Source: an uncultured Planctomycetia bacterium
GTDB lineage: Bacteria > Omnitrophota > Gorgyraeia > Pluralincolimonadales > Pluralincolimonadaceae
Assembly: GCA_964650515.1 (NCBI GenBank)
Contig: CAZYUB010000002.1
Coordinates: 12,708-76,707, forward strand
Direction of reading: 5' to 3'
DNA: 64,000 bases
Every line of letters starts with the position of its first letter. Positions within the stretch are counted from its first letter, which is position 1. This document shows positions 22,752 through 51,896 of the stretch, piece by piece. Both the position numbers and the translations under genes were made by a program. Below the pieces are notes generated by a model. The model was given only the letters and a program-made list of their open reading frames with translations. It did no database searches and was not told where the DNA came from.

Positions 22752-23620
22752 TGAACGTGAAGATAGGGATAACAGGGTCAAGAGGGTTCATAGGTTCCGA
22801 GTTGGCGGGGCATCTTGAAAGCAACGGCTTCAAGGTAGTCAAGCTGGACGGACATACTCGGCAGGAAAGCGGCGAGAATGAAAAGAGCGCCTTGCCGAAA
22901 GGCCTGAAATGGGTACTTCATTTTGCCGCATCGACATCTATTGAGGAGAGCCGGAAAGACCCGTTTCGAACATATAGGAACAATATAGATTCTACTCTTG
23001 CGGCGATTGAAATAGCCAAAGAGTCGAAAGCCGCCTTATTGTTCATGAGTTCATATGTTTACGGAAACCCGAAGTACGTTCCTATTGACGAGGACCATCC
23101 TCTTGGGGCTGTGAACCCATACATGTCGAGTAAGATAATATGCGAGGATATCTGCCGTCAGGTATCCAAGTTAATGTCAATACCTCTTGTCATATTAAGA
23201 GGATCGAATATTTATGGAAAAACCCTTATCAAGGGAAGGCTTATTCCCGATTTGCTGGAATCGGCGAAAAAGGGCGAGCAATTGACGATAACCGACCCTC
23301 TTCCAAGGAGGGATTACCTGTACATAAGGGATTTTTGCGGGTTGATTATCAAAATACTTGATAACGATCCCCCTATACAAGGGACATTCAATGCCGGACA
23401 GGGCCAAAGCTATTCCAACAAGGAAGTTGCGGAAATAGTTAGACGGCTTAGTTCAAATAAATACCCGGTAGCTGTTAACGGTCCGAAAAGGGAGAACGAC
23501 ATTAAGGACGCCTCGATAAACGTTTCTCTTGTAAAGAAGACTTTCATGTGGGAACCGTCATACAGTCTGGAAGACGGGCTGAAGGAACTCATAGGTCATA
23601 GAAAGAGAGGGTTAATATGA
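22748..23620 (+). CDS. NAD-dependent epimerase/dehydratase family (short form; NDP-4-keto-6-deoxyhexose reductase/epimerase-like)
   Basis: 'IGITGSRGFIGSEL', 'YMSSKIICE' YxxxK; about 290 aa. ATGA overlap start. Confidence 0.65.
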   Translation: MMNVKIGITGSRGFIGSELAGHLESNGFKVVKLDGHTRQESGENEKSALPKGLKWVLHFAASTSIEESRKDPFRTYRNNIDSTLAAIEIAKESKAALLFMSSYVYGNPKYVPIDEDHPLGAVNPYMSSKIICEDICRQVSKLMSIPLVILRGSNIYGKTLIKGRLIPDLLESAKKGEQLTITDPLPRRDYLYIRDFCGLIIKILDNDPPIQGTFNAGQGQSYSNKEVAEIVRRLSSNKYPVAVNGPKRENDIKDASINVSLVKKTFMWEPSYSLEDGLKELIGHRKRGLI

Positions 23621-24552
23621 TATCAATAATATCTCCGGTCTACAACGAAGCCGAAAATCTTGAAGAGCTTTGCAACAGGATCACGTCGGCCGTTAAGAAA
23701 GAGGAAGTTGATTATGAGGTCATCTTTGTAGATAACGGAAGCACGGATCGGTCGCTCGATGTAATAAAAAAGCTCAGGAAAAGCGACGCTAAAGTAAAAT
23801 ATGTAAGCCTTTCAAGGAATTTCGGCCATCAGGGAGGTATTGTTGCGGGTCTTTCAAGTGCATCTGGTGACGCGGTAATTTCACTTGACGCCGATCTTCA
23901 GCATCCGCCCGAACTCATACCGGAACTGATCAGGAAGTGGAAGGGCGGTTACTGTGTTGTTTCAACGACAAAGAAATTCAAAGGGGTGAGTTCAGGATTC
24001 AGCCTGTTCCCGAGCAGGATATTTTACAAGCTGATAAGCTCCATATCGGACATCAATTTGACCTACGGAGAATCGGATTATCGCCTGCTCGACCGGAAGG
24101 TGGTTGATGCAGTGTTGGAGATACCTGAAAAGCACAAATTCCTTCGCGGTATGGTCAAATGGGTCGGATTTTCGCAGACATCGGTCGAATACGAGGTAGC
24201 CCAGAGAAAATCCGGCGAATCGAAATTCTCGTTCTGGAATTACGTTAATTTTGCGTTTGACGGGATATTTTCATTCTCTATCGTACCTTTGAGGGTCTTC
24301 CTTTGGTCGGGCATCCTGGTGGCGTTATTCTGCATATTATGGGGAGCGTTCTATTTTGTAATGGGCCTGATCAGCCTTTTTTCCCCCGAGAAGAACCTTT
24401 TGCCGCCCGGCTCTGCCACGATAACGGTCAGCATAATGTTTCTCGGCGGAGTGCAGCTTATCGGGATAGGGATACTCGGCGAGTACCTTGGGCGCGTATA
24501 CCAGCAGACGAAGGAAAGGCCGGATTTTATCGTGAAGGAAAAAGAGCTGTAA
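23617..24552 (+). CDS. GT2 polyprenyl-phosphate glycosyltransferase (DPM1/ArnC/GtrB-like) with C-terminal TM helices
   Basis: 'ISIISPVYNEAENL...IFVDNGSTDRS...VSLSRNFGHQGGIVAGL...ISLDADLQHPPE', then two hydrophobic helices at the C-terminus. Confidence 0.75.
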   Translation: MISIISPVYNEAENLEELCNRITSAVKKEEVDYEVIFVDNGSTDRSLDVIKKLRKSDAKVKYVSLSRNFGHQGGIVAGLSSASGDAVISLDADLQHPPELIPELIRKWKGGYCVVSTTKKFKGVSSGFSLFPSRIFYKLISSISDINLTYGESDYRLLDRKVVDAVLEIPEKHKFLRGMVKWVGFSQTSVEYEVAQRKSGESKFSFWNYVNFAFDGIFSFSIVPLRVFLWSGILVALFCILWGAFYFVMGLISLFSPEKNLLPPGSATITVSIMFLGGVQLIGIGILGEYLGRVYQQTKERPDFIVKEKEL

Positions 24553-24558: not shown

Positions 24559-25401
24559 ATGGGTAATTGCATAGTTTGCGGCAGCAACGATAAAGGCCCC
24601 TTATTCGGAAAAATATCCAGATGCAAGGGGTGCGGCCATATATATTATGGTATAGAGCATACCGATGAAGAGATAGAAAGGCTTTATTCACATGGGTATT
24701 TCTTCGGGGAGGAATACAGCGATTATGTTGCTGACAGGAAAACCGCGAGCAAAAATTTCAGGCTTAGGGTCAAGGTTCTTAAACGGTTCCTGGACGCAAG
24801 CAAGCATAAGCGGCTGCTTGAGATTGGATGCGCATACGGGTTTTTTCTCGAGGAGGCTAAGGAATATTTTACTTCCGTTAAAGGCATCGATGTCTCTAAA
24901 GAGGCTGTGTCATACGCTAAGGACAGGCTGTTTTTGGATGTTGAAAGCGATGAATTCCTTAAACACGATTATAAGGGACAAAAATTCGATTGTGTATGCA
25001 TGTGGGACACCATCGAGCACTTGAAAAGGCCGGACCTGTATATTGAGAAGATCGGGCAGCTGACCGATAAGGGGGCTTTGCTTGCGCTGACGACCGGGGA
25101 TATAGCGAGCTTTAGCGCAAGAATGATGAAAAGTAAATGGCGCCTTATCCATCCACCCACCCATATACATTATTTTTCGGAAAAATCGCTTGCTAAGTTA
25201 TTGGAAAGGGGCGGTTTTAGGATTATTTATAAGTCTCATTGCGGATTTTTCAGGAGCATAGATATGCTGTTTAACAGGACCGTAGGCAAGATCCCGGGAT
25301 TGGGCAGATTATGTTCATTTATCGGCAAAACCGCTATTGGAAGGGTTGATTTTTATGTTAATCTTCGTGATATCATGTATTTGATCGCAAAAAAAGATTA
25401 G
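24559..25401 (+). CDS. class I SAM-dependent methyltransferase with N-terminal Zn-ribbon
   Basis: 'CIVCGSN...CKGCGH' ribbon; 'LLEIGCAYGFF' SAM motif I; 'DCVCMWDTIEHL' motif III. Confidence 0.6.
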   Translation: MGNCIVCGSNDKGPLFGKISRCKGCGHIYYGIEHTDEEIERLYSHGYFFGEEYSDYVADRKTASKNFRLRVKVLKRFLDASKHKRLLEIGCAYGFFLEEAKEYFTSVKGIDVSKEAVSYAKDRLFLDVESDEFLKHDYKGQKFDCVCMWDTIEHLKRPDLYIEKIGQLTDKGALLALTTGDIASFSARMMKSKWRLIHPPTHIHYFSEKSLAKLLERGGFRIIYKSHCGFFRSIDMLFNRTVGKIPGLGRLCSFIGKTAIGRVDFYVNLRDIMYLIAKKD

Positions 25402-25417
25402 TCTAGGGAGGTTAGAG

Positions 25418-27391
25418 ATGTGCGGCATATTCGGGTTCGTGCTAAACAAGGAATCAAAGATGTCGGAGGATGGCATCCGCGGGATGTTGCCTCTGATATG
25501 CAGGCTTTCGGAAAGGCGGGGGAGCGAAGCATCGGGTATCGCGATAGGCTTAGAAGGCGCGATATCATATTTTAAGAAGCCGATGAGGCCTACGCAGCTG
25601 GTCAAGGAAACGGATTTCCGGAAATTTATCGATTCTAAACTGGGACTGGCGGCCTCCGGCGAGTCAAGGATGGTAGAAAAGCCTTTTGCGGTGATCGGGA
25701 ACAGCCGCCTTGTGACGAACGGCACGCAGGCGGTGGCCCAGAACAACCAGCCGGTCGGCGCCGGCCGCGTAGTCGGCGTTCACAACGGGATCATAACCAA
25801 TTCGGACAGGATCCTGGAGAAGTACCCGAATGTCAGAAACGCGGTTGTGGATAGTTCGGATTCAGATACGTCAGTGCTTATGGGGTTGATAAATGAAAAA
25901 TACGCGGAAAGCGGCGATATAAAAAGTGCGCTCGCAGAAACGTATTCTGATATAGAAGGTTCTGCGTCTATTGCATTCATGTGCGAGAACGCGCCGTTTA
26001 TCGCGCTTGCGACAAATACAGGTTCCTTATTCTACAGTAACGATCCAAGTGCACGGATGTTTGTATTCGGTTCAGAGAAATTCATTGTAGAACGGTTCCT
26101 TGCCGGCAGTAAGATAGCATCCGGAAGGGATTTTGTTCCGGTGGTGCAGATCAAGCCGCATACCGCCGCTATAGTGGATATACATTCGGGCGCGCCTGAT
26201 ATTTACGACATGAGAGGGTACCAAAGCGGGAAAAAGATGGTTATCTCGGGCAAGAGATCCGGGTTATACAAGATATTTGATGAAAGCGAATCGAAGGTTG
26301 AATTAAAGCGATGCACGAGATGCATCCTGCCCGAATCATATCCGTTCATTGCTTTTGACGAAGAAGGTGTATGCAATTACTGCAGAAGATATAAGAAACA
26401 GGAATACCTTGGAAAAGCCGCGCTGGAAGAGGTGTTGTCAAAACACAGGTCGAAGGATGGTAAGCCCGACTGCATTTATGGCTTAAGCGGGGGCAGGGAC
26501 AGTTCCTACGGGTTGCATGTGCTTGTAAAAGAATTCGGGATGCATCCTATAGCGTATACATATGATTGGGCGCTTGTTACAGACCTTTCCAGGAGGAACC
26601 AGGCAAGGATCACCGGGAAGCTCGGAGTTGAGCATCTTATCAGAGCAGCGGATATACACGCCAAGAGGAGGCATATACGAAAGAATATCTACGCATGGCT
26701 TAAAAGGCCTAAGCTTGGCATGGTCACGATTTTCATGGCTGGCGACAAAATGTTTTACTACTATGGAAGGCAGTTGCGGAAAGAGACGGGGATTGATTTC
26801 ACCGTATTCGCTTCTGGACAACAGGTGGAGCAGATGGAATTCAAAGTCGGCTATTGCGGCATAAACAAGCAGCTTGTGAATAATACGCGCCTTTACGATT
26901 ACGGAGCATCGGCGAAGATGCGCCTTGCGCTATGGTACGGAAAGGAATTCATGCTTAATCCCTCCTACCTCAACGAATCACTCCCGGACAATATATTCGC
27001 GTTTTATTCCAGTTTCCTGAATAAGGATGACTATCTCTATCTCTATAATTACCTGCCTTGGGATGAAAAGCTGATAGAAAAAACAGTAATAGAACAATAC
27101 GGATGGGAGTCCGACGTTAAGTACGGCGGAAATCAGTGGAGAATGGGCGATGGCCAGACGGCTTTTATTAATTATATATATTATACGATAGGAGGTTTCT
27201 CCGAGTTTGATAATTTCCGAAGCAACCAGGTAAGGGAGGGATGGATTAAGAGGGAAGAGGCGCTTAACCTTGCGGAAAAGGATAACAGGCCTCGAATAGA
27301 CATGCTCCTTGATTTCAGCCAGCTGATAGGTTTTAATCTCGAAGACGTGCTTTTAAGGATTAATTCGATACCAAAGACATATATAAAATAA
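25418..27391 (+). CDS. class-II (Ntn) glutaminase domain fused to WbuX/PseA-type N-acetyl-sugar amidotransferase (PP-loop)
   Basis: N-terminus 'MCGIFGFV' with nucleophile Cys2 and AsnB-like 'GNSRLVTNG'. Middle 'CTRCILPESYPFIAFDEEGVCNYC' matches the WbuX/PseA zinc ribbon. 'SGGRDSS' PP-loop. GGGAGG RBS in the 16-nt gap upstream. Confidence 0.65.
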   Translation: MCGIFGFVLNKESKMSEDGIRGMLPLICRLSERRGSEASGIAIGLEGAISYFKKPMRPTQLVKETDFRKFIDSKLGLAASGESRMVEKPFAVIGNSRLVTNGTQAVAQNNQPVGAGRVVGVHNGIITNSDRILEKYPNVRNAVVDSSDSDTSVLMGLINEKYAESGDIKSALAETYSDIEGSASIAFMCENAPFIALATNTGSLFYSNDPSARMFVFGSEKFIVERFLAGSKIASGRDFVPVVQIKPHTAAIVDIHSGAPDIYDMRGYQSGKKMVISGKRSGLYKIFDESESKVELKRCTRCILPESYPFIAFDEEGVCNYCRRYKKQEYLGKAALEEVLSKHRSKDGKPDCIYGLSGGRDSSYGLHVLVKEFGMHPIAYTYDWALVTDLSRRNQARITGKLGVEHLIRAADIHAKRRHIRKNIYAWLKRPKLGMVTIFMAGDKMFYYYGRQLRKETGIDFTVFASGQQVEQMEFKVGYCGINKQLVNNTRLYDYGASAKMRLALWYGKEFMLNPSYLNESLPDNIFAFYSSFLNKDDYLYLYNYLPWDEKLIEKTVIEQYGWESDVKYGGNQWRMGDGQTAFINYIYYTIGGFSEFDNFRSNQVREGWIKREEALNLAEKDNRPRIDMLLDFSQLIGFNLEDVLLRINSIPKTYIK

Positions 27392-27392
27392 T

Positions 27393-28220
27393 ATGGGCGT
27401 AAACTGCACTATTTGCGGAAACAGCGCGAATACCATCCTCGCAGACGGGACGATAAACCGGTATGACTGCGTATCCTGCGGACATTCATTTTCCGTGATT
27501 GAGCCGTCAAAACAAGTTTCTTACAATGCGGATTACTATGACCTTAAGCATGCAAACTGGTTCAGCAATCCCAATATATGGTTATTCAGGTACATTTTGA
27601 AGCAGGCGCGGATCATCCTGGGCGACGGCAGGATATCGGTGGTCGATGTGGGGTGCGGTAAGGCTGATTTCCTGAAATACGCAAGGATAAAAGACCGCAA
27701 GGTCGATGTTTACGGCATAGACCTGTGCGATAACGATATTCCGGACATAGCGTTCTATAGGGCAGATTTCCTAAAAACGGAGATCAACCGGAAATTTGAT
27801 CTGGTTACAAGCATGGCCTCGATCGAACATGTTGAAGATGTGAATTCTTTTGTCAGGAGGCTGGCGAATCTATCGTCTCAGGGAGGCATTATATCCGTAA
27901 CTACGGATAATGCAGGCGGGATATTCTTTTCATTGTCGAGATTTCTAAAAAAGGCGGGATTGGCAACGCCTTATTACAGCCTTTATGAGCCGGCCCATTT
28001 GCAGCATTTCACGAATAAATCATTGCGGATCCTTCTTGAAAAGAACGGACTTAAGGTCATCTCGCAAAGGAACCACAATTATCCCGCTGAAGCGGTGGAC
28101 ATGCCGGATGCAAACCCGTTCATGAAGATGGTTTATATATTAGGAGTACGCTTCCTGTTTGCCATGCCGTCGAACTTCGGGATCCTGCAGACAGCTATTT
28201 GCAGGAAGGAAAGAAATTGA
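27393..28220 (+). CDS. class I SAM-dependent methyltransferase with N-terminal Zn-ribbon
   Basis: 'CTICGNS...CVSCGH' ribbon; 'VVDVGCGKADFL' motif I; 'FDLVTSMASIEHV'. Confidence 0.55.
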   Translation: MGVNCTICGNSANTILADGTINRYDCVSCGHSFSVIEPSKQVSYNADYYDLKHANWFSNPNIWLFRYILKQARIILGDGRISVVDVGCGKADFLKYARIKDRKVDVYGIDLCDNDIPDIAFYRADFLKTEINRKFDLVTSMASIEHVEDVNSFVRRLANLSSQGGIISVTTDNAGGIFFSLSRFLKKAGLATPYYSLYEPAHLQHFTNKSLRILLEKNGLKVISQRNHNYPAEAVDMPDANPFMKMVYILGVRFLFAMPSNFGILQTAICRKERN

Positions 28221-30094
28221 ACCGCAGCCCTTTCCGTATTAAATACGGGCTTTACGCGATCTTGCTTCTTGTTATCTGTATTGCGGTCGCATCATCTGTT
28301 TTGCCCGGTATCGGCAAACACCTCGACAACCCTAACCTTATACCGTATTTCAACGTTGACGAAGGTTATCTTATGGACCTGATGTGGTATTACTACTCAG
28401 GGGAGATCAGGGACAGTTTCCAGATGACGCTTGATTACGGGTTGGAGATGGTTTACGTGGTCAAGTTCTGCCGCATATTCCTTTCGGAGAAAATGGTATT
28501 CACCCCGGGCACTTTCGTAATGATATTCAGGTATATTCATCTCATATCCTGGATCGCGGCTATTATTTGTTTATGGGGGCTGGTCGGCAGGCATTTCCGT
28601 AAAGGCGCAGAGCAGGTAGTTGTGGCGGGCCTTCTTGCCGTTAGCCCGAGTTTCGGTTATTTCATGAACAGCCTTAAGCCGGACCCTTTGTTATTACTTA
28701 TCATGGTCTTGGGCATGGATTATACTCTCAGGATGATAGATAAACCGCGAACAGCATATTTCATTGCCGTCATATTTTTGTCTGCAATGGGATTCGTGGT
28801 CAAATTTTCCGGCATATTTATGCTCTTGCCGTTAATAGCGTCATTATATATTTCACGCCAAATGTTAAATAATGAGAATAGCTGGATCGCGCGGTTCAAT
28901 ATAAGAGGGGTGTGGTGCATACCCTTGGTTGCTTCGGCAGTAATGATCGCGCTGCCGATAGCGGCTATATTTATATATGTTCGAAAAACATCGGGAATGA
29001 CATATTTTCAGGAATATGGATTTTGGCAGGCGTTTATAAGATATAAGATAGCGACGGTATTTGGCGCGGCCGGTTTGTCTCTTGCGGCATTTAGTATCGC
29101 CTTGTACAAGATGAGCAGGTCAAGGAAGGACTACGTGCGGGAAATATGGAAAAAACTTGAGATATTTGGGTCGTATTCGGTCTTTGCCGCGGGCGCTTTT
29201 ATCATTGCTTTATTGATCGTAGGATTCGGATGGCTGCTGATGCCGGCGCATTTCTTCGAAACATATTTTCTTAACGGGATGGATTTTACCGGTGGCGAGA
29301 TCCTTAAGCAGGTAAAGACCATACCGCAGTTAACCGCGGTATATTCTTCTGCGATCGCCGAAAGGTTAGGGTCATTGGATATCGTCATGTTAGCGCTGTT
29401 TGCCGTGTATGCGTTAGTTGAATATAATTATCGTACGACTCTTGCCAGGGAAGATGAAGCCAGACGCAGAAAAAGATTACTAATATCCGTTTATTTGATC
29501 CCTTTTTTCATGATGATGTTTACGCTGGGCCGGTTTACGAACCATCACGCGCTTATATTCACTGTTTTTGTGTCATTGTTGGCCGTAGAAGGTATATATA
29601 TCATCATGACGAGGCCGAATATGAATATGCTTGTAAAGTCGGTTATCGGGACAGGCGCTGCCGTATATTTCCTGATTGATTTGACGCTGGGCGGTTATGC
29701 GATGGCAAAAGAGCGCATGTATGAGCTGAGAAAAGATGAAGATGTTTGCTTCGAGGTGGAAAAATGGATCCGGAATAACCTTCCCCAGGACGCAAGAATC
29801 CTCACCGATTATCATACTAGGGCCTATGTTCCCCCTTATCTTAATAATCCGATAACTCTGAAGCACGGGGGTAAGGACAGGCTTACACAGATAACAGAGC
29901 TTATTAATGATGCCAGGCCGCGCTATATATATTTGAATGAAGGGACCGGTGATGAGAACCTGCCTCCTATCGAAAAAATAGTCACGGGCGGAAAAACCAG
30001 GCTGTTGGCTTACTTCGAAAGCAAGGGAAGGCAATACCAGAGAAGGAGAGGAGATAAATACGTAATATATGAAATATTTTACGAAAGTAAGTAG
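28199..30094 (+). CDS. polytopic membrane protein, GT-C fold (ArnT/PMT-like) glycosyltransferase candidate with C-terminal periplasmic domain
   Basis: At least 11 hydrophobic helices, then a soluble ~150-aa tail. TTG start is uncertain: the first in-frame ATG lies after the first TM helix. Low-GC region. Confidence 0.5.
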   Translation: MQEGKKLNRSPFRIKYGLYAILLLVICIAVASSVLPGIGKHLDNPNLIPYFNVDEGYLMDLMWYYYSGEIRDSFQMTLDYGLEMVYVVKFCRIFLSEKMVFTPGTFVMIFRYIHLISWIAAIICLWGLVGRHFRKGAEQVVVAGLLAVSPSFGYFMNSLKPDPLLLLIMVLGMDYTLRMIDKPRTAYFIAVIFLSAMGFVVKFSGIFMLLPLIASLYISRQMLNNENSWIARFNIRGVWCIPLVASAVMIALPIAAIFIYVRKTSGMTYFQEYGFWQAFIRYKIATVFGAAGLSLAAFSIALYKMSRSRKDYVREIWKKLEIFGSYSVFAAGAFIIALLIVGFGWLLMPAHFFETYFLNGMDFTGGEILKQVKTIPQLTAVYSSAIAERLGSLDIVMLALFAVYALVEYNYRTTLAREDEARRRKRLLISVYLIPFFMMMFTLGRFTNHHALIFTVFVSLLAVEGIYIIMTRPNMNMLVKSVIGTGAAVYFLIDLTLGGYAMAKERMYELRKDEDVCFEVEKWIRNNLPQDARILTDYHTRAYVPPYLNNPITLKHGGKDRLTQITELINDARPRYIYLNEGTGDENLPPIEKIVTGGKTRLLAYFESKGRQYQRRRGDKYVIYEIFYESK

Positions 30095-30797
30095 AGCTGA
30101 AGTCGTAATACTATGCGGCGGTATGGGCACGCGCATGAAAGAGGAGACGGAATACAGGCCCAAGCCGATGGTCGAGATAGGCGGAAAACCGATCATCTGG
30201 CATATAATCAGGCACTATTCACTGTTCGGGTTCGACAGGTTCATATTGGCACTCGGGTATAAGGGCGACCAGATAAGGGAATATTTCTCAGGGGACGGGA
30301 ACGTCGTCTGCGTCGAAACGGGGCTTAAGACGCTGAAAGGCGGAAGGATAAAGAGATTGGAGCCCTTCATCCAGGGTAAGCATTTCCATCTTACATACGG
30401 TGACGGGCTGAGCGATGTTGATATCGGCCGGCTTGAAGCGTTCCACAGGAAGCACGGGAAGATATGCACGGTCACGGCCGTAAGGCCGCCTTCCCGCTTC
30501 GGGGAGATGGTGATAAAGGGGAACAAGGTCAGGGAGTTTGAGGAGAAACCGCAGCTTTCGACCGGGCATATAAACGGCGGATATTTCGTGTTCAAGAGGG
30601 AGATATTCGATTACCTGACTTCATCGAAGGATTGTGATTTCGAGTTCGGGCCCCTGCAAAAGCTGTCAAGGAAAGGGCAGATGATGGCATACCGGCATTA
30701 CGGGTACTGGCAGTGCATGGATACGGTCAGGGACGCGGAGTACCTGAACAAGCTATGGAAGTCGGGAGCCGCGCCGTGGAAGACGTGGAAGAGATGA
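30069..30797 (+). CDS. rfbF: glucose-1-phosphate cytidylyltransferase (CDP-glucose pyrophosphorylase, RfbF-like)
   Basis: 'VVILCGGMGTRMKEETEYRPKPMVEIGGKPIIWHIIRHYSLFGFDRFILALGYKGDQIREYF' is near-canonical RfbF. Confidence 0.7.
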   Translation: MKYFTKVSRAEVVILCGGMGTRMKEETEYRPKPMVEIGGKPIIWHIIRHYSLFGFDRFILALGYKGDQIREYFSGDGNVVCVETGLKTLKGGRIKRLEPFIQGKHFHLTYGDGLSDVDIGRLEAFHRKHGKICTVTAVRPPSRFGEMVIKGNKVREFEEKPQLSTGHINGGYFVFKREIFDYLTSSKDCDFEFGPLQKLSRKGQMMAYRHYGYWQCMDTVRDAEYLNKLWKSGAAPWKTWKR

Positions 30798-31852: not shown

Positions 31853-32298
31853 TAGACGGCGTAAAGGTAATACCGCTCAAGAAGATATCGGACGAGAGGG
31901 GCACGATCATGCACATGCTGAAGAATACTGACCCCCATTTCGAGCAGTTCGGCGAGGTCTATTTCTCGACCGCTTATCCCGGAGTGATAAAAGGATGGCA
32001 TGAGCATACGAAACAGGTCCAGTTCTACGCAGTTATAAAGGGGATGATCAAGCTCGTCATGTGCGACAACAGGCCGAAATCCCCTACATACAAGGAGCTT
32101 ATGGAGGTCTGCGTAGGCGACGATAATTACCAGCTCGTCAGGATACCTGCCGGCGTAATAAACGGTTATAAGAACATCGGGACGGATACAGTGATAGTTG
32201 CCAACTGCTCCACGCTGCCGCATGAGCCTAACGAGATGCTCCGGTACGACCCTCACGGGGACAAGGTCCCTTACGAATGGAAAAGAATAGATAAGTAG
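31849..32298 (+). CDS. cupin-fold NDP-sugar epimerase/ketoisomerase (RmlC/FdtA-like)
   Basis: 149 aa; 'DERGTIMHM', 'KGWHEH' His pair and β-rich composition typical of the dTDP-4-dehydrorhamnose 3,5-epimerase/WxcM-like domain. Confidence 0.55.
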   Translation: MIDGVKVIPLKKISDERGTIMHMLKNTDPHFEQFGEVYFSTAYPGVIKGWHEHTKQVQFYAVIKGMIKLVMCDNRPKSPTYKELMEVCVGDDNYQLVRIPAGVINGYKNIGTDTVIVANCSTLPHEPNEMLRYDPHGDKVPYEWKRIDK

Positions 32299-32299
32299 G

Positions 32300-34094: not shown

Positions 34095-34097
34095 TAA

Positions 34098-38022: not shown

Positions 38023-38026
38023 AGCG

Positions 38027-44992: not shown

Positions 44993-46119
44993 GGAAAATA
45001 TCATTGCCCGTATACGAGGCATCGCGCTGCCGATTGTATGCGTTGGGAAGGAACGCGATGTATGCCGCGTGCAAGGCGTTCGGGCTGAAAGAAGGCGACG
45101 AGATATTGACGCCCGCGTTCGATTGCGACGGGTCTCTACAGCCGTTCAGGGCGCTCGGGCTGAAACTGAAGTTCTACCGTTCGGACCCGTACACTTTCGA
45201 AGCGGATACGGGCGATATGGAAGCAAGGATGGGGCCGTCTACAAAGATGGTCCACGTCATCAACCATTTCGGAATGCCCCAGCCGTGGGACAGGATAAAG
45301 AGGATATGCGTGGCCTCGAAGGTCCCCGTCATGGAGGACTGCGCGTATTCGCTGTTCTCGAAAGGATTCGGCACGAACGGCGATGCAGCGATATTCTCGC
45401 TGAGGAAGAACCTGCCGATTGTTGACGGCGGTATGCTGCGTATGAACAACGGGAATTACGCGCTGGGCCGTCAGGCAGAACGCGCGCCCCTATTCTACCG
45501 GACGGAATCGGCAAATGTGCTGACATTGGTCAAATCGGCGATGGGGTATTATAAGGCGCCAGAAGGGCTCAGGCGGATGCTCAGGAAGGCAAACCCGGCG
45601 GTCGAACCGCCTCCGCCTTTGTACTCGGAGAAGGAGAAGGGGTATCCCGAGTGGCCCCTGCGCGATCATACGGGCGAGGAGTTCAGCTGCGATTATGAAA
45701 GGCCCATCTCCGCGTTGGCGAGGTTCCAGCTGGAAGGCCTGCCGGAAGGATATTATAAAAATGCCGCGGAGATGAAACGGCGCTATTATTCGGAGCTCGC
45801 CGGGAAATTTGCCGGGCTGAACGGGTTACGGGTGCTCTGGCCGGAACTTCCGGAAGGGATAGTCCCTTTTTGCCTTTCCGTATTAGTGCACCGGGACAGG
45901 GACAGCATATTCGCGGAATTAAGGAAAAGATATGACGTGATGGCCTGGCCGACGCTTTCGCAGGAAGTCATCGACCGGCTTGACGAATACCCGGAAGTGG
46001 AGATCCTCGGCAGGAAGGTCCTGCAGTTCAACCTGCCGGCCGACAAGGTCATGAGGCGGGATTATCCCTTGTATATAGGCAGGCTCGCGCGCGATCTCAC
46101 CGCGCTTACGGAAAGATAG
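44986..46119 (+). CDS. DegT/DnrJ/EryC1/StrS-family PLP-dependent sugar aminotransferase-like (N-terminally short, divergent)
   Basis: 'NAMYAACKAFGLKEGDEILTPAF' aligns with the DegT 'alhlal.algi..GDEVivP.f' segment; 'VPVMEDCAYS', 'IFSLRKNLP' matches the SFxxxK PLP-lysine motif. GTG start. Confidence 0.5.
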   Translation: MLRKISLPVYEASRCRLYALGRNAMYAACKAFGLKEGDEILTPAFDCDGSLQPFRALGLKLKFYRSDPYTFEADTGDMEARMGPSTKMVHVINHFGMPQPWDRIKRICVASKVPVMEDCAYSLFSKGFGTNGDAAIFSLRKNLPIVDGGMLRMNNGNYALGRQAERAPLFYRTESANVLTLVKSAMGYYKAPEGLRRMLRKANPAVEPPPPLYSEKEKGYPEWPLRDHTGEEFSCDYERPISALARFQLEGLPEGYYKNAAEMKRRYYSELAGKFAGLNGLRVLWPELPEGIVPFCLSVLVHRDRDSIFAELRKRYDVMAWPTLSQEVIDRLDEYPEVEILGRKVLQFNLPADKVMRRDYPLYIGRLARDLTALTER

Positions 46120-47220
46120 ATGGAATACCGCTGGATCGAGGATATAGAGGATTTCAGGAAGATAGCGGGAGAATGGGACATGCTCGTCTCCAGCGGAGAC
46201 TCGCACCCTTTCCTGCTGTCGGATTTCATAATAACGTGGTGGAAATATTTCGGGAAGGGCAAGAAACTCAGGATATTCGTCATCGAGGAGGGCGGAAAGG
46301 TCAAAGGCGGCCTGCCTTTATGCCTTAACAGGGGCGGCGCAAGGGAGGGTTTCGCGGATCTCCTCCATTATATAGGAGAGGTCGCCGCGAATTACACGGA
46401 ACCGCTTTATTCAAACGGGAAGCCGGAGATATTCCCGTTGCTGGCCCGTGCGCTTTCGGAGAGGAACGACTGGGATGTCTTTTGCCTGACCGATATCAGG
46501 GAAGGCAACCGGTTCCTGAAGGAGCTCAAAGGCGCGACGGGTCAGAAGGGCTGTTCGATATTCCTCATAAGCGACCATATGAACTACGCGATAGACCTTG
46601 GTAAGGGGCTCGACAGTTATCTTTCGTCGTTATCGCCGAAACTCAAGAGGGACCTGAGATCGAAGCGCAAGCACCTCACGCAGAAGTGCGGAGCGATAGT
46701 CCTCGAGAAGGCCTCGGGCGAAAAGGAAGTTGGAGAAAGCGCCGCCCTTTACAAGAAGTTCTCAAGGGAAGCGTTCGCGGCGAGGAACAGGAAGAGCAAT
46801 TTCGAGAACGACAAATACGCGGATTTCTTCGGGGAATTCCTAGTCCTGATGGAAAAGGCCGGCCGGCTGGACGCGCACCTGCTCAAGGCGGGAGATACCG
46901 TGCTTGCGATAAGCTTCGCGTACAGGTTCGGCAGGGGCTTCAACTGGGTCCTTACGGCGTTCGATTACGAATATAAGTATTACAGGCCGGGATATATCCT
47001 CATAGAGGAATTACTGAAGGAGATATGCGCGAGGGGCGAGACATATTACAACTGGTACGGGCACGGGCGTTTTTACAAGGACCAGCTTTGCAACCTGCTT
47101 AAGCCCCTGTATAAGGTGATGATGGTAAGGAAGACGTTGAAAGGTTCGTCGTACCTGCTTTCGCAAAAAGCCAAGAAGGCGGTCAAGTACCTGAAAGGGC
47201 TGGTCGACGGTGCAAAATAA
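46120..47220 (+). CDS. FemAB/BioF2-like (Acetyltransf_6, CelD-like) GNAT-fold acyl- or aminoacyltransferase
   Basis: 366 aa. The N-terminal 'W..L......PFL...F...W' segment and C-terminal 'GYILIEELLKEICARGETYYNWYGHG' resemble the BioF2-like acetyltransferase family. Confidence 0.45.
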   Translation: MEYRWIEDIEDFRKIAGEWDMLVSSGDSHPFLLSDFIITWWKYFGKGKKLRIFVIEEGGKVKGGLPLCLNRGGAREGFADLLHYIGEVAANYTEPLYSNGKPEIFPLLARALSERNDWDVFCLTDIREGNRFLKELKGATGQKGCSIFLISDHMNYAIDLGKGLDSYLSSLSPKLKRDLRSKRKHLTQKCGAIVLEKASGEKEVGESAALYKKFSREAFAARNRKSNFENDKYADFFGEFLVLMEKAGRLDAHLLKAGDTVLAISFAYRFGRGFNWVLTAFDYEYKYYRPGYILIEELLKEICARGETYYNWYGHGRFYKDQLCNLLKPLYKVMMVRKTLKGSSYLLSQKAKKAVKYLKGLVDGAK

Positions 47221-48181
47221 CCCGGTACGCCGCCGCCTGCGCAGGGATTACCATGCCGTAAGGCGCGTCGTCGCGCATGCAAAAAATGCGCTTACGGACC
47301 CTTCGCCGAAACTCATAGTCCTTACGTACCACAGGATATTGCCTGCTGCCGGGCATAACCCTTTGAATACGGCTGTGTCGGAACGCGCCTTCGTAAAGCA
47401 GGTCGAGGGCGTTGCAAGGAAGGCGGGCATAATATCGCTGTCGGATGCGGCCGACCAGCTCAGGAACGGACGCGTTAAACGGGATTTGCAGGCGGTGATA
47501 AGCTTTGACGACGGGTATTCGGATAATTACGGGACGGCCTTCCCGCTATTGAAGCGGAAGGGCCTACCGGCGGTATTCTCCGTTTCGACCGCTTATATCG
47601 GCGCAGGTCTGCCGCTTTGGGATTCCGAAGCGATAATGAGGATAATCCGCGGGAATATAGGCCGGATAGACACCGCAGGTTTCACTGCCGAGAGAAGCAT
47701 GGCGGAATCGGCGCGTTCTTTCGCTTTCAGGGTCTTCGATGAACTGAAATCGAAGGACTTCGCGGTGATAGGAAAAGTCCTCGAATTCCTGAGGGAGAAG
47801 GACCCCGGATACGGAAACGAGGAAGGGCGCTGCATGACGTGGGAACAGGTAAAGGAATTGTCCGATGCGGGCATGGAGATCGGGTCGCACGCAGTGACCC
47901 ATAGGTCCCTCGCGAGGATACCCTTCGCGGAGGCGGAGTCCGAGGTGAACGCAAGCAAGGCCGAAATAGAGAAGAGGACCGGAAGGCGCTGCGCCCATTT
48001 CGCTTTCCCGTTCGGAAGCGCAAGGGATTATAATCCGAGACTGATAGAATGCGTAAGGAAGGCCGGATACGGGACCTGCCTGCTCAATATACACGGTTAC
48101 AACAGGATGGGCGAGGGCGCTTTCGCGCTGAAGAGGACTGTCATGGAAGAGGATACGGACGTGAGGTTCATACTTGGCTGA
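47210..48181 (+). CDS. polysaccharide deacetylase (NodB-homology, CE4 family)
   Basis: 'VISFDDGYSDNYGTAFPLLKRKGLPAVFSV', 'MEIGSHAVTHRSL' are NodB motifs 1-3. GTG start. Confidence 0.65.
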   Translation: MQNNPVRRRLRRDYHAVRRVVAHAKNALTDPSPKLIVLTYHRILPAAGHNPLNTAVSERAFVKQVEGVARKAGIISLSDAADQLRNGRVKRDLQAVISFDDGYSDNYGTAFPLLKRKGLPAVFSVSTAYIGAGLPLWDSEAIMRIIRGNIGRIDTAGFTAERSMAESARSFAFRVFDELKSKDFAVIGKVLEFLREKDPGYGNEEGRCMTWEQVKELSDAGMEIGSHAVTHRSLARIPFAEAESEVNASKAEIEKRTGRRCAHFAFPFGSARDYNPRLIECVRKAGYGTCLLNIHGYNRMGEGAFALKRTVMEEDTDVRFILG

Positions 48182-49244
48182 GAATATCATGCCGGAAGTG
48201 GATGTCATAATCCTGAGCTATCTCGATTACGGGAGGCTGCAGAAATGCGCCGATTCCGTATTGGCGTCCACCTACCCGAACCTGAAACTGGTCATAGCCG
48301 ATAACGGATCGGGGCCTAACGTCATCGCTGCCGTAAAGGAGAGGTATTCAGGGAACCCTAAGGTGGCAATAATAGAGAACAGGGAGAACCTCGGTTACGC
48401 CGAGGGCAACAACGTCGCGTTGAGGGCGACCGGAGGCAAATACTGCGTGATCCTCAACAACGACGCGATAGTCGACCGTAACTGGCTCGAGCCGATGGTC
48501 GAATACCTCGACAGGAACGCGAAAGCCGGCGCGTGCCAGCCGAAGATACTCGACATAAAGGACCCGCGCAGGTTTGAGCATTCCGGCGCCGCCGGCGGGT
48601 ACCTGGACAGGTACGGTTACCCGTTCATGAGGGGAAGGCTGTTCGATACGCTCGAGAACGATGAGGGCCAGTATGACGACCACGCATCGCTCGACTGGTG
48701 CTCCGGGACCGCGTTCATGGCCAAGCGCGAAGTGCTCGAAAAGGTGGGCCTTTTCGACCCGATATATTTCATGTATGGCGAAGAGAACGACCTCTGCTGG
48801 AGGATAAAGCGCTGCGGATACGACATCGCGTTCGTGCCGAGGTCGAAGGTCTACCACGAAGGCATGGGCTCTATAGGGAAACGCCCGCTTTTCAAGCTTC
48901 ACCTTAACTACAGGAATAACATAATACTGCTCATGAAGAATTTCAGCATGACCCAGCTGGCCGTAAGGCTTCCGGTAAGGATGGCGCTGGACGCCGTTAA
49001 TATCCTGTATTTTATCGCCAGCAAGCCAATGAGCTTCAGGTTTGCCAGCATCGTATGGGCTTATTGCGAGCTTGCGATCATGCTGCCGCGGATTATCCTC
49101 GCGAGGATACGCACGCAGCGCCTGTTCCGCGAACTCGGAAGCGAAAACGCCCCGCTATACCCGATGTACCAGATAAGCGTCGTCTTCCAGTATTTCCTGA
49201 TGGGAAGGAAAAAATTCAGCCAATTGAAATTAAGGAGAGCGTAA
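48174..49244 (+). CDS. GT2 family glycosyltransferase
   Basis: 'VDVIILSYLDYGRLQKCADSVLAST...LVIADNGSG...LNNDAIV'. The start could be TTG 48174 or ATG 48189. Confidence 0.7.
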   Translation: MAENIMPEVDVIILSYLDYGRLQKCADSVLASTYPNLKLVIADNGSGPNVIAAVKERYSGNPKVAIIENRENLGYAEGNNVALRATGGKYCVILNNDAIVDRNWLEPMVEYLDRNAKAGACQPKILDIKDPRRFEHSGAAGGYLDRYGYPFMRGRLFDTLENDEGQYDDHASLDWCSGTAFMAKREVLEKVGLFDPIYFMYGEENDLCWRIKRCGYDIAFVPRSKVYHEGMGSIGKRPLFKLHLNYRNNIILLMKNFSMTQLAVRLPVRMALDAVNILYFIASKPMSFRFASIVWAYCELAIMLPRIILARIRTQRLFRELGSENAPLYPMYQISVVFQYFLMGRKKFSQLKLRRA

Positions 49245-49245
49245 T

Positions 49246-50184
49246 ATGAATACGGCCCTTTCTATCGTCATCCCCACGTATAACGAGGAAGCTTCCATCG
49301 TCAAGCTACACGCAAGGATAAAAGAAGCCCTGCGCGGCAAGGTCAAATACGAGGTCATATTCGTCGACGACGGGAGCACCGACGGGACATGCGGCATATT
49401 GGGCAGGCTGAACCGCGAGGACCCGGACGTAAAGGCCGTGAGACTCTCGAGGAATTTCGGGCACGAGATAGCGACGTCCGCGGGGCTCAAATATGCGTCG
49501 GGAGAGGCCGTAGTCGTAATGGACTCCGACCTGCAGCATCCTCCCGAGACGATAAATGAACTGTTGGAGAAAATGAAGGAAGACTATGATATCGTCTTCG
49601 CGGTAAGGCGCAACAGGGAAGCCGGATCCGCGCTTAAAAAATTCTGCTCGAAGGCCTTCTACGGCATATTGGGCAGGCTGTCGGAGGTCAAACTGCCGGA
49701 TGACGTGACGGATTTCATGATACTCAACAGGAAAGCGGTCGACGCGTTCCTGAAGCTCAAGGAGAAGAGCCGGTTCTTCAGGGCCATGGTATCGTGGATG
49801 GGCTTCAGGACGGCATTCGTGCCGTTCGAGGAGGGCAAGAGGCGCAGCGGCAGCTCGAAATACGGCCTGCGGAAGCTCGCGGGCCTTTCGGTAGACGTAG
49901 TGACCGGATATTCGATAAAACCGCTGGCGTTCGTCGCATGGACAGGGTTCATAATATCGGCGTCAAGTTTTGCGCTGCTGATTTTCTACCTGGTCAAGAC
50001 GGTATTCTACGGCGCGTCCATGCCGGGTTACGCGTCGATGATGATAACGATATTGTTCATAGGCGGCATACAGCTGCTGTCGATCGGGATAATAGGCCAG
50101 TATATCGGCAGGATTTACAAGGAGACACAGAAGAGGCCGTTATACCTAGTCGGCAGCCTTATCGGACTGGAAGAAAAGGAATGA
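49246..50184 (+). CDS. GT2 polyprenyl-phosphate glycosyltransferase (DPM1/ArnC/GtrB-like) with C-terminal TM helices
   Basis: 'LSIVIPTYNEEASI...[11 protein letters not shown]...VRLSRNFGHEIATSAGL...VVMDSDLQHPPE', then two TM helices. Confidence 0.75.
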   Translation: MNTALSIVIPTYNEEASIVKLHARIKEALRGKVKYEVIFVDDGSTDGTCGILGRLNREDPDVKAVRLSRNFGHEIATSAGLKYASGEAVVVMDSDLQHPPETINELLEKMKEDYDIVFAVRRNREAGSALKKFCSKAFYGILGRLSEVKLPDDVTDFMILNRKAVDAFLKLKEKSRFFRAMVSWMGFRTAFVPFEEGKRRSGSSKYGLRKLAGLSVDVVTGYSIKPLAFVAWTGFIISASSFALLIFYLVKTVFYGASMPGYASMMITILFIGGIQLLSIGIIGQYIGRIYKETQKRPLYLVGSLIGLEEKE

Positions 50185-51896
50185 CACGTAAGAAGGCCGC
50201 CCTGTTGTTGGCCGTCGTGCTGCTGGCGGCATTCCACATCGCCGCAAGCATCGCGCAGATGTCTAACAAGTTCGACGATGAGCCCGCCGCAGGGCCTTTC
50301 GGCGGGATACGCCTGCATTACCTGAATGTCCTCAACTTCGATTTCTCGCATGGGGTGTCAGCGCCGGCCGGCACGTCGCATATACTGGACAATTTCATCA
50401 AGTCGGCGGTCAGCGGAACGCACGGGCTCCTTGATTTTGCGCACTGGTACGCATACGCGGGCATATATGACATGCTCGGGATACCGGTGAACGAGTTCTG
50501 GCTTTTGTTCGCGCAGACCGTGGTGATGTTCTGCGGCCTCATGTTGATGGCATACGCGGTATACAGGCTCTACGATGATGCAGTAGCGGCGCTGGTATTC
50601 CTGGCGATAACGTCCCAGGCGTATGTGCAGCACTCCATCAGTTTCTATATAATACCGGCCAATACGCTATATGAGGGACTCCTACTTCTCGCGATATACT
50701 TTTACGACTGGAAGGAGAAGGGGTTTGCGCGGAAAATCCCGCTTCTCGCGATGTTATTCATAAACTCGGCCTGCGGCAACGTGATAAAACTGCCGGTATA
50801 CCTGTATTTCGCATGGGCCGCGGCGTATAAACGGGACAATTACGGGCCGGTGCGTTCGGCCAGGGAATACTTCGTAAAGAACCCCGCGAACCTGACGCTT
50901 GCGGTCCCGGTCATTGCCGCGGCCGTCGCGCACCTCTATGTATACAAGAGGATAGGAGAGAGCAATCTCGGGCTTTTGGGCTGGGTCTCGCAGAAGATAG
51001 GCATAGGAGCTCCGCTCGTTTCGAAGTTCGCAGCGATAGGAAGTTCGCTGAAGAGCATGCTGCTGTCAGGCATGTGGCAGTGGTGGGCGTTTGCAGCACT
51101 TGCGGCATTTTACGCGATAGCCGTAATGCGGGGAAAGAAACAAACACCGCTGCTGTTATTTCCCGTCGTATATTACCTGTACCTCATAAATCTCGAGCCG
51201 TATTCGGCGATGCTTCCCTATATGATTATCGCGTCTATAGCGATAGCGCAGGCCTTCAGGATGGCATCCGATAAAACACGGAATGCGGCCGCGAGGTATG
51301 TTTCAACTGCGGCAGCCGCGGTCTTCACGGCATACATACTGTCGGTCCCGGCGTCCGCGAACATGGCTTCCCTCGTCTCGCCGAGGCAACGGTCACCCAA
51401 TTACCTGAAGAGCGTCGGTTATTACCTTAGGGAGCATATGAGCAAGGATGATAAGATCGCAAGCTTGCTCGACCAGAGGGAGAACATCCTGAACGAATAT
51501 TATTACGGAAAGAACTTCTTCAAGAGCCCGGTATTCGGGAAATATATCTATGACATGAGGAACATTTCGGAGCCGCCGTCTTCAACGAACCCGGTAGCCG
51601 AAGGCGAGGCGGACATGGAATTCCCTTTTTATGTCGTATCTGCGTCGTGTTATAAAAAGGACGCGGGATATGCCTCATTTGTAGATAGGCTCGCAAAGAA
51701 ATACTCTCTCAAGAAGGTCGCCGATATCGCCTCGGGCGGCACCGTCTATGCGTCGGTGTATTCTTCGAGGCCTCTGCAATACGAGAGGTTAGAGGCCGAG
51801 AATGCCAATGGGAAATTTGACAGGAAATACGCAAATTTAAAGAAACTGTTCTACAACAGGCATGTCGGCGTAGCCTCGACATGGGGGTTCTATTGA
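50181..51896 (+). CDS. polytopic GT-C fold membrane glycosyltransferase candidate (PMT_2/ArnT-like)
   Basis: ATGA overlap start at 50181 'MTRKKAALLLAVVLL'; the track start 49794 is an upstream extension. At least 11 TM helices and a C-terminal soluble ~150-aa tail. Confidence 0.5.
   Translation: MTRKKAALLLAVVLLAAFHIAASIAQMSNKFDDEPAAGPFGGIRLHYLNVLNFDFSHGVSAPAGTSHILDNFIKSAVSGTHGLLDFAHWYAYAGIYDMLGIPVNEFWLLFAQTVVMFCGLMLMAYAVYRLYDDAVAALVFLAITSQAYVQHSISFYIIPANTLYEGLLLLAIYFYDWKEKGFARKIPLLAMLFINSACGNVIKLPVYLYFAWAAAYKRDNYGPVRSAREYFVKNPANLTLAVPVIAAAVAHLYVYKRIGESNLGLLGWVSQKIGIGAPLVSKFAAIGSSLKSMLLSGMWQWWAFAALAAFYAIAVMRGKKQTPLLLFPVVYYLYLINLEPYSAMLPYMIIASIAIAQAFRMASDKTRNAAARYVSTAAAAVFTAYILSVPASANMASLVSPRQRSPNYLKSVGYYLREHMSKDDKIASLLDQRENILNEYYYGKNFFKSPVFGKYIYDMRNISEPPSSTNPVAEGEADMEFPFYVVSASCYKKDAGYASFVDRLAKKYSLKKVADIASGGTVYASVYSSRPLQYERLEAENANGKFDRKYANLKKLFYNRHVGVASTWGFY

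Follow-up and report, generated by a model that had tools for sequence, protein, structure and literature searches.

Results

Four DPM1-like GT2s and five polytopic membrane proteins lie within 28 kb

We analyzed a 64,000-nucleotide stretch of DNA (the window) from an uncultured bacterium of the Omnitrophota (contig CAZYUB010000002.1, positions 12,708 to 76,707 of the forward strand). An earlier note, made from the sequence alone, had described four GT2 glycosyltransferases (GTs) resembling DPM1 and ArnC and, interleaved with them, five large polytopic membrane proteins. All nine open reading frames (ORFs) are present on the + strand, and the four putative polyprenyl-phosphate sugar synthases and five mutually unrelated GT-C proteins that they encode are packed into 28 kb. 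Genes are named here by their start coordinate in the window (for example, 23617 stands for 23617..24552). In the databases, the nearest proteins belong to metagenome-assembled genomes of Candidatus Omnitrophota. The nine genes are listed below, with transmembrane (TM) content and family scores, the latter compared with the gathering threshold (GA) where relevant.

23617..24552, + strand, GtrB/ArnC-type polyprenyl-phosphate glycosyltransferase no. 1 (311 aa; GT-A domain plus two C-terminal TM helices; PF00535, 112.9 bits)
28199..30094, + strand, GT-C no. 1, PMT_2 family (~13 TM helices plus a C-terminal soluble domain; PF13231, 44.7 bits, GA 26.1)
35243..37066, + strand, GT-C no. 2, PMT_2 (extra N-terminal module of ~190 aa with ~6 TM helices; PMT_2, 26.2 bits, GA 26.1, residues 268-415)
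38542..39228, + strand, TM-less DPM1-type GT2, candidate polyprenyl-phosphate sugar synthase no. 2 (228 aa; PF00535, 74.1 bits)
39230..40765, + strand, GT-C no. 3 (no direct Pfam match; GT-C by fold)
40762..42114, + strand, GT-C no. 4, PMT_2 family, in conserved tandem with 39230 (own PMT_2 match 23.2 bits, below GA)
42096..43547, + strand, candidate synthase no. 3: sugar-1-phosphate nucleotidylyltransferase (aa ~1-240) fused to a DPM1-type GT2 (aa ~250-483) (PF00483 and PF00535)
49246..50184, + strand, GtrB/ArnC-type polyprenyl-phosphate glycosyltransferase no. 4 (312 aa; two C-terminal TM helices; PF00535, 120.4 bits)
50181..51896, + strand, GT-C no. 5 (small family, found mostly in Omnitrophota-labelled genomes; not covered by Pfam or NCBIfam)

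The four GT2s group with GtrB, ArnC, and DPMS

PF00535 scores above its cutoff in all four GT2s, and each of them aligns to GtrB, ArnC, or DPMS across the entire catalytic domain, so that the acceptor half and the juxtamembrane region are covered as well. The four sequences group together, whereas the five ordinary GT2s of the window align with them only over ~100 N-terminal residues, corresponding to the nucleotide-binding half. At the end of the GT-A domain, all four carry an R-x-x-G-x-SK motif: R197-KSGESK in 23617, R199-RSGSSK in 49246, R201-KSGSSK in 38542, and R450-LEGVSK in 42096. The sole other match to this motif in the window lies off position, at residue 76 of the GT2 18630. Judged by position and motif, the arginine of the four GT2s is probably equivalent to the fully conserved Arg-205 of ArnC and to Arg-202 of PfDPMS. 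At the level of sequence, these data place the four GT2s in the GtrB/ArnC/DPM1-like group of polyprenyl-phosphate glycosyltransferases, as the earlier note had proposed. The opposing possibility, that they are processive polysaccharide synthases, was rejected: the QxxRW motif is missing (no Q..[RK]W match in any of the nine GT2s), and the proteins have 0-2 TM helices and no multi-TM channel.

The two long enzymes align with GtrB over their full length. When compared with PDB sequences, 23617 matched Synechocystis GtrB sll0501 (PDB entry 5EKP) with an E value of 3e-80 over residues 2-307, and 49246 matched it with 3e-89 over residues 4-309; the corresponding ArnC matches gave 1e-46 and 2e-48. 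Their paired TM helices lie at residues 233-251 and 269-287 in 23617 and at 229-247 and 265-283 in 49246. The metal motif reads DADLQH in 23617 and DSDLQH in 49246; DADLQ(D/N/H) is the metal/nucleotide motif described for GtrB, ArnC, and PfDPMS (bioRxiv 10.1101/2025.01.29.634835). The top NCBIfam model for both proteins is PgfS, with 299 bits for 23617 and 276 bits for 49246 against a cutoff of 500, and their ArnC scores are 184 and 187 bits against a cutoff of 529.

The short GT2 38542 matches ArnC (E 7e-10, residues 5-218) and PfDPMS (E 1.7e-9, residues 5-209) best among PDB entries, in both cases over the whole catalytic domain, and it shares 31% identity with 49246 over residues 1-222 (E 3e-18). 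In the fusion protein 42096, PF00483 covers the N-terminal half, whose best NCBIfam matches are AglF (103.9 bits) and RmlA, and PF00535 (74.3 bits) covers residues 254-379. The C-terminal half scores 104 bits against AglJ (cutoff 325) and 75 bits against the Dol-P-hexose transferase model (DPhHxTase). The best GT2 structure for this half is PfDPMS from Pyrococcus (E 3e-12, residues 244-473).

Fusions of this type are widespread. More than 1,165 homologs, from at least five phyla, share >50% identity with 42096 and span Omnitrophota, Planctomycetota, Acidobacteriota, Cyanobacteriota, Spirochaetota, and Aminicenantes, where they bear generic names only. We located homologs in four of the compared loci (L004, 14261-15640 on the - strand; L006, L007, and L008, 8001-9437). 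In other phyla, the neighbors of the fusion are a methyltransferase and polytopic membrane proteins, including a 515-aa protein with 10 TM helices and a DUF2079 protein. In an unrelated genome of 8 Mb, the fusion gene also has a Transglut_core protein (L006, 13515-15515) close by. No paper on a nucleotidylyltransferase-GT2 fusion was found in the searchable literature.

The five membrane proteins are GT-C glycosyltransferases

Each of the five membrane proteins contains 10-16 hydrophobic segments, as counted in a Kyte-Doolittle scan rather than with a dedicated topology predictor, in keeping with the polytopic architecture that the earlier note had assigned to them. That note had also seen PMT_2-like signatures in at least two of them; we find three, namely 28199, 35243 at the GA, and 40762 below it. 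The three-dimensional fold of the membrane proteins is that of GT-C enzymes, and not of Wzx, Wzy, or a transporter, the assignment that would have spoken against the proposal. In the three families that were aligned, an acidic residue in the early loop is invariant: Asp-30 in APDDY (39230), Glu-34 in FD.EP (50181), and Asp-84 in FGD (40762). The N termini of all five proteins are basic, which, by the positive-inside rule, suggests that the N terminus is inside and the acidic loop lies on the periplasmic side. As predicted from sequence, this is the catalytic arrangement of GT-C enzymes. Together, these data identify all five membrane proteins as GT-C glycosyltransferases.

The evidence differs among the five. 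28199 has 10-13 hydrophobic segments, a basic N terminus, and a VDEGY acidic motif after TM1; a phmmer search of it against PDB sequences gave no match. Its TTG start codon is uncertain, and the ortholog in L001 was called at 594 aa. 35243 has 16 hydrophobic segments and an acidic loop, PEGFMEGPDTQE (EGPDTQE), after the TM helix at ~202-220, and its full-length homolog in L004 (40% identity) is also PMT_2-positive. The N-terminal extension of 35243 (residues 1-190, 35243-35820) contains about six TM segments, matches no family, and is conserved in the L004 homolog; it could be a fused flippase or an accessory module. The 40762 family comprises 853 representatives in an exhaustive search, and 44 of its 51 aligned members match PMT_2 (best E 3e-15); the family profile also matches STT3A with an E value of 4e-4.

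For 39230 and 50181 the family evidence is thinner. 39230 has no PMT_2 match of its own, although 10 of the 49 members of its family do, and neither 50181 nor any of its 26 family members matches PMT_2. Comparison of the 39230 family, the 50181 family, and 28199 by hhalign gave nothing significant except a weak shared C-terminal motif (E 0.043); thus, the GT-C membership of the 39230 and 50181 families rests on structure. That motif, N(V/I)LN(T/E)YYG followed by aromatic residues, is common to the otherwise unrelated 39230 (40400-40765) and 50181 (51400-51896) families and may mark a common periplasmic acceptor-binding domain. A longer, 700-aa GTG ORF starting at 49794 was rejected as the 50181 gene, given a 100%-identical NCBI protein of 571 aa, encoded on a 151-kb contig, and orthologs of ~570 aa.

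The five GT-Cs show no significant pairwise similarity. They therefore represent five distinct GT-C lineages rather than recent duplicates, which implies five specificities. Finding at least five GT-C genes in a given 25-gene window by chance would have a p value of ~5e-8 to 2e-7, under the illustrative assumption of 10 GT-C genes among 1,500-2,000 genes.

Synthase and GT-C genes stay together in diverged relatives

The genes of the two groups are tightly packed. 38542 and 39230 are separated by 1 bp, 49246 overlaps 50181 by 4 bp, 39230 overlaps 40762 by 4 bp, and 40762 overlaps the fusion 42096 by 19 bp. 23617 lies three genes upstream of 28199. The earlier note had each synthase next to or near a membrane protein, and for these genes that description holds; beside 35243, there is no DPM1-like GT2.

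A relative with 93% identity has exactly the same gene order (relatives at 93-97% identity, on a 230-kb scaffold, are labelled Candidatus Omnitrophota), and blocks are retained down to ~50-60% identity. Adjacency of GT2 and GT-C genes is conserved in relatives at 37-60% identity. Module blocks recur in shuffled order at 37-40% identity, and in relatives modules may be split or missing. In L003 (~40% identity), one GtrB-like gene precedes a YfhO-family GT-C, and a second one, accompanied by a methyltransferase, precedes the homologs of 39230 and 40762. The same locus keeps a DegT-acyltransferase-CE4 trio that is also present in the window. It further contains a separate nucleotidylyltransferase gene directly upstream of a GT2, and that GT2 is nearer to the ordinary GT2s of the window than to the DPM1-like group. 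In L004 (~37% identity), a short DPM1-like GT2 and a methyltransferase precede the 39230 and 40762 homologs, and the opposite strand encodes the fusion (63% identical) with its radical-SAM neighbor (SAM, S-adenosylmethionine), together with the full-length 35243 homolog. The tandem of 39230 and 40762 homologs is thus kept in both loci.

The 50181 family was detected in only ~9 of 185,579 reference species, mostly Omnitrophota-labelled with one Planctomycetia. Among the eight loci that have upstream sequence, the block GT2, GtrB-like gene, GT-C, GT2 is intact in six; in another, which is more distant, a short DPM1-like GT2 takes the place of the synthase, and one (L012) has no synthase there. 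In L005, a short DPM1-like GT2 stands immediately before the 50181 homolog. The GT2 that precedes the 50181 homolog in L012 (1862-3802) carries a C-terminal extension of ~290 aa.

These comparisons show that the adjacency of synthase and GT-C genes is evolutionarily conserved. Genes that overlap or are spaced by 1 bp, and associations that survive both divergence and rearrangement, speak for a functional coupling between the synthases and the GT-Cs.

The modules are embedded in a very large glycan cluster

The ~55 ORFs of the window follow one another in the same direction along the + strand. Neighboring genes often overlap by 4 bp and are nowhere more than 16 bp apart, an arrangement that speaks for their co-transcription. 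The 64 kb resemble an exceptionally long operon-like glycan super-cluster. Its further features are as follows.

11493..13298, + strand, fused ATP-binding cassette (ABC) exporter with TM and nucleotide-binding domains, HepA/MsbA/PglK-like (PF00664 and PF00005; HepA 413, MsbA 385, and PglK 260 bits, all below cutoffs)
20950..23620, + strand, nucleoside diphosphate (NDP)-sugar supply of module 1: nucleotidylyltransferase, 4,6-dehydratase-like short-chain dehydrogenase/reductase (SDR), epimerase/reductase SDR (PF00483, PF16363, PF01370; nearest NCBIfam models LegB-, RfbB-, and GalE-like)
24559..28220, + strand, tailoring genes between synthase 1 and GT-C 1: two SAM methyltransferases, GATase plus WbuX-like sugar amidotransferase
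30069..35246, + strand, RmlA/B/C/D-like 6-deoxyhexose block, ordinary GT2, transglutaminase-like/TPR protein (PF00483, PF01370, PF00908, PF04321, PF00535, PF01841 plus TPR)
37063..38545, + strand, SDR dehydratase/decarboxylase-like enzyme and hexapeptide acetyltransferase before synthase 2 (PF01370/PF16363, PF00132; nearest NCBIfam models RfbB-, UDP-xylose-synthase-, and WcaF-like)
43544..49244, + strand, amino-sugar tailoring: B12-radical SAM enzyme, DegT aminotransferase, FemAB-type acyltransferase, CE4 deacetylase, ordinary GT2 (PF02310 plus PF04055, PF01041, PF13480, PF01522, PF00535)
62863..63999, cut by the window end, + strand, WecA/MraY-family polyprenyl-phosphate N-acetylhexosamine-1-phosphate transferase, the initiating enzyme (PF00953, 127.7 bits; WecA model, 113.6 bits; nine TM segments)

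In addition to the WecA-like transferase, the window holds four GT4s and five ordinary GT2s (8289, 18630, 33189, 48174, and 51898; WcaA/TuaG/PglI-like). It also encodes several nucleotidylyltransferases, many SDR dehydratases, epimerases, and reductases, an RmlC/RmlD-like pair, an aminotransferase, acyltransferases, methyltransferases, and two glutamine-dependent amidotransferases. In the stretch that separates synthase 1 from GT-C 1, the methyltransferase domain PF13489 is found at 24559 and 27393, and GATase_6/7 at 25418; the WbuX score of 131.9 bits is below its cutoff. Two ORFs encode unusual fusions: the 657-aa product of 25418-27391 joins a glutamine amidotransferase domain with a WbuX-like N-acetyl-sugar amidotransferase, and the 618-aa product of 57927-59783 combines a GT4 with a DUF218 domain. 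The ordinary GT2 of the 6-deoxyhexose block (33189-34094) is WcaA/PglI-like, and the transglutaminase-like/TPR protein (34098-35246) is membrane-anchored and overlaps 35243 by 4 bp. The CE4 deacetylase 47210 best matches PgaB/IcaB-type deacetylases, and neither an ArnD model nor an ArnD structure was matched.

The window encodes four B12-binding radical-SAM enzymes (4874-6520, 15710-17206, 19556-21076, and 43544-44992), which suggests that sugars may undergo unusual C-methylation, deoxygenation, or ring reactions. 43544 comes closest to the NCBIfam models HpnJ (192 bits) and AprD4 (116 bits) but reaches neither cutoff. The upstream third of the window (328-18633) resembles a CMP-sugar (nonulosonic/ulosonic-acid-like) pathway. 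It contains a HAD phosphatase, a PFTS-motif protein, a GFO/IDH/MocA oxidoreductase, an Ldh_2 dehydrogenase, and an HMGL-like aldolase. Of the three CTP_transf_3 cytidylyltransferase domains in this region, one is fused to the GT2 at 8289-9641. Two large proteins (9641-11491 and 16963-18633) have no family.

None of the ~55 window ORFs has a Pfam match to Wzx, Wzy, WaaL, or STT3, and Wzx, Wzy, or WaaL could lie outside the window. The 11493 exporter is the only candidate in the window for a lipid-linked glycan flippase; for the lipid-phosphate-sugars, this exporter and the 6-TM N-terminal module of 35243 are possible flippase candidates. A GtrA-like flippase among small ORFs on both strands was rejected: only two candidates emerged, both antisense inside + strand genes, and the window offers neither a small multi-TM ORF nor intergenic room for one.

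Discussion

Extracytoplasmic glycosylation modules as the likely function

Our preferred reading, to which we assign a probability of about 0.7, is that four Gtr/Arn-type extracytoplasmic glycosylation modules are embedded in one very large Omnitrophota surface-glycan cluster. In this scheme, the neighboring nucleotidylyltransferase, SDR, aminotransferase, acyltransferase, methyltransferase, and radical-SAM genes would provide several unusual NDP-sugars, and each DPM1-like enzyme would transfer one such sugar to undecaprenyl (polyprenyl) phosphate at the cytoplasmic face. The 42096 fusion would couple NDP-sugar synthesis and lipid loading within one polypeptide. The lipid-phosphate-sugars would then be flipped across the membrane, and each GT-C would add its sugar to an acceptor in the periplasm, extending or decorating a flipped lipid-linked glycan. 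The likeliest acceptor would be a lipid-linked oligosaccharide (on polyprenyl pyrophosphate) built in the cytoplasm by the WecA-like initiator, the four GT4s, and the five ordinary GT2s, and presumably exported by the PglK/MsbA-like ABC transporter. We infer the substrates and the lipid carrier, the sequence in which the steps occur, and the identity of flippase and acceptor.

The earlier note had likened the locus to mycobacterial or Gtr systems rather than to Wzy-dependent synthesis. The lack of a Wzx, Wzy, or WaaL match in the window fits that view, but the full cytoplasmic assembly set (the WecA-like transferase, GT4s, GT2s, and ABC exporter) points to a hybrid pathway that is not purely mycobacterial in style. 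At the level of parts and logic, the interpretation put forward in the note is supported.

Several observations weigh against the modular reading. None of the four GT2s reaches an NCBIfam equivalog cutoff (PgfS, ArnC, PpgS, or AglJ), and sugar specificity is therefore not transferable to them. The metal motifs of the two short enzymes are divergent: 38542 has PADGQ, in which the second Asp and the Gln are kept, and the C-terminal half of 42096 has EADYS, in which the second Asp is kept and the Gln is lost. TM helices are absent from 38542 and from the fusion. The non-canonical motifs and missing helices make a lipid-phosphate acceptor less certain for these two enzymes, and their assignment is somewhat weaker. 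TM-less members of the polyprenyl-phosphate GT group are known, including human DPM1 and PpgS, and 38542 would be another. Furthermore, no DPM1-like GT2 adjoins 35243, and with four synthases and five GT-Cs the pairing is not strictly one-to-one; in L012, the 50181 homolog lacks a GtrB-like gene beside it. No window ORF matches GtrA (PF04138), SMR (such as ArnE/F or Rv3789), or MATE, the small dedicated flippases that supply the defining third part of such systems; one could be encoded elsewhere. Finally, three stretches (20-30 kb, ~40-42 kb, and 1-4 kb) have a GC content of only 0.45-0.48, compared with 0.53-0.57 in the rest of the window. The dips at 20-30 kb and ~40-42 kb suggest a mosaic of cassettes that do not necessarily serve a single glycan.

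Alternative explanations

It is unlikely that the GT-Cs are themselves the main builders, polymerizing or extending most of the glycan outside the membrane from lipid-phosphate-sugars in the manner of Emb and Aft, with the cytoplasmic GTs making a primer only. Five mutually unrelated GT-Cs and four donor synthases in one cluster would suit such a role, as would the lack of a Wzy polymerase match in the window. However, the nine cytoplasmic GTs (four GT4s and five GT2s), the WecA-like transferase, and the ABC exporter suffice for a sizable lipid-linked glycan made in the cytoplasm. There is also no DPPR-synthase/DprE-type arabinose donor pathway, and the C-terminal domains of the GT-Cs are small (~110-170 aa), unlike those of the large Emb and AftD proteins, which bear carbohydrate-binding modules (CBMs).

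A little less probable is that some or all of the GT-Cs act on proteins (O-glycosylation of the PMT/PgfM/TMTC kind or oligosaccharyl transfer) or, like ArnT, on lipid A or core, rather than on a polysaccharide. PMT_2 is the family of both ArnT-like and protein-mannosyltransferase-like enzymes, and PgfS, the top model of both long GT2s, belongs to streptococcal protein glycosylation; the cutoffs of the PgfS and ArnC equivalogs are missed, though, and we found no STT3 Pfam match and saw no WWDYG-type motif. The TPR/transglutaminase-like periplasmic protein translationally coupled to 35243 could offer a protein link. The series of DegT, acyltransferase, CE4, ArnC-like GT2, and GT-C recalls ArnB/A/D/C/T, but the deacetylase is a generic CE4 enzyme (PgaB/IcaB-like) rather than ArnD-specific, and the genes sit in a polysaccharide-type cluster and not beside lipid A genes.

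Least probable is a hypervariable mosaic of independent, horizontally exchanged cassettes whose modules serve different glycans or are partly redundant: the GC shifts, the modules shuffled, split, or absent in relatives, and the reported hypervariability of Omnitrophota polysaccharide cassettes (bioRxiv 10.64898/2026.06.07.730766) fit it, but the ~55 genes on one strand without a gap above 16 bp and with many 4-bp overlaps, the same gene order in the 93%-identity relative, and blocks kept to ~50-60% identity speak against it. The low-GC stretches include synthase 1 with GT-C 1 and the GT-C 40762, which suggests that these modules may have been acquired or exchanged as cassettes.

Implications of the modular reading

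If the modular mechanism is true, the locus would be among the densest known concentrations of lipid-phosphate-sugar/GT-C modules outside Mycobacteriales, and an uncultivated, often ultrasmall or host-associated phylum would build much of its surface glycan outside the cytoplasmic membrane. The 39230 and 50181 families, which have no direct match to a curated model, are candidates for new CAZy families, and the highly conserved, cross-phylum nucleotidylyltransferase-DPM1 fusion offers an uncharacterized enzyme for study. That no GtrA-type flippase is recognizable in the window bears on how lipid-phosphate-sugars cross the membrane.

A further-reaching version would be a two-compartment line like that of the endoplasmic reticulum (ER), in which five evolutionarily distinct GT-Cs assemble much of a complex heteroglycan in the periplasm, drawing on four different lipid-phosphate-sugars; two of these GT-Cs would be the founders of unclassified GT families. 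Some of these sugars would be tailored while lipid-linked (by cytoplasmic CE4 deacylation and by the HpnJ/AprD4-like radical-SAM enzyme), and, separately, the fusion would define a widespread uncharacterized route in which a sugar-1-phosphate is channeled straight into a lipid-linked donor for partner GT-Cs. We regard this version as improbable.

Comparison with known systems

The three-component logic of synthase, flippase, and GT-C has been reviewed and extended by Kelly et al. 2024 (PMC11127046), who state that "more elaborate systems containing multiple ... GT-Cs" exist and describe them as unexplained. No paper on multi-GT-C loci in Omnitrophota was found in the searchable literature.

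The modules resemble the Gtr system of O-antigen glucosylation (GtrA/GtrB/Gtr*) in that a GtrB-type GT2 with two C-terminal TM helices adjoins a polytopic GT-C. They differ in that the window has no GtrA, SMR, or MATE gene and contains four synthases and five GT-Cs instead of one each. Moreover, the modules here are chromosomal, lie inside the main glycan cluster, and come with NDP-sugar tailoring genes of their own, and their GT-Cs are mutually unrelated.

The Arn pathway for lipid A aminoarabinose (ArnB/A/C/D/T/E/F) shares with the locus a DegT aminotransferase, N-acyl transfer, an ArnC-like polyprenyl-phosphate GT, a CE4 deacetylase, and a PMT_2-type GT-C. The window, however, has neither the ArnA formyltransferase nor ArnE/F, and the context is a polysaccharide cluster. 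We rejected orthology with the Arn pathway, as the CE4 enzyme is PgaB/IcaB-like with no ArnD matched and the ArnC cutoff was missed, and we keep it as an analogy of logic.

Also comparable are the streptococcal Pgf (PgfS/PgfM1/PgfE/PgfM2) and SCC/GAC side-chain systems, which have several synthase/GT-C pairs per locus and in which one GtrB-type synthase serves more than one GT-C (PMC12041528; bioRxiv 10.1101/2024.05.09.593426). Here, the PgfS cutoff is missed, the host is one of the Omnitrophota and not a Gram-positive streptococcus, the GT-C families are different, and the modules are more numerous.

The proposed scheme also resembles the way in which arabinan is built in mycobacterial arabinogalactan and lipoarabinomannan synthesis (DPA and PPM donors; Emb, Aft, and PimE GT-Cs; the short synthase PpgS). 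In contrast to that system, DPPR synthase and DprE are absent here, the GT-Cs are small (450-630 aa) and lack large CBM domains, and the cytoplasmic assembly set is large.

Finally, the eukaryotic ER and archaeal N-glycan pathways (DPM1/ALG5; ALG3/9/12/6/8/10; AglF/AglJ) offer a parallel, with cytosolic GT4 and GT2 steps, flipping, and GT-C steps that use dolichyl-phosphate-sugars, and Haloferax AglF and AglJ are the top matches of the two fusion halves. The present locus differs in its bacterial host, in that no STT3/AglB oligosaccharyltransferase was identified in the window, and in the sequence identity of only 6-12% to the ALG enzymes.

Polyprenyl-phosphate-sugar synthases paired with GT-Cs are thus a known kind of glycosylation system, which is here unusually multiplied and partly unclassified; as the individual parts are of known kinds, the advance would be one of degree and diversity rather than of principle.

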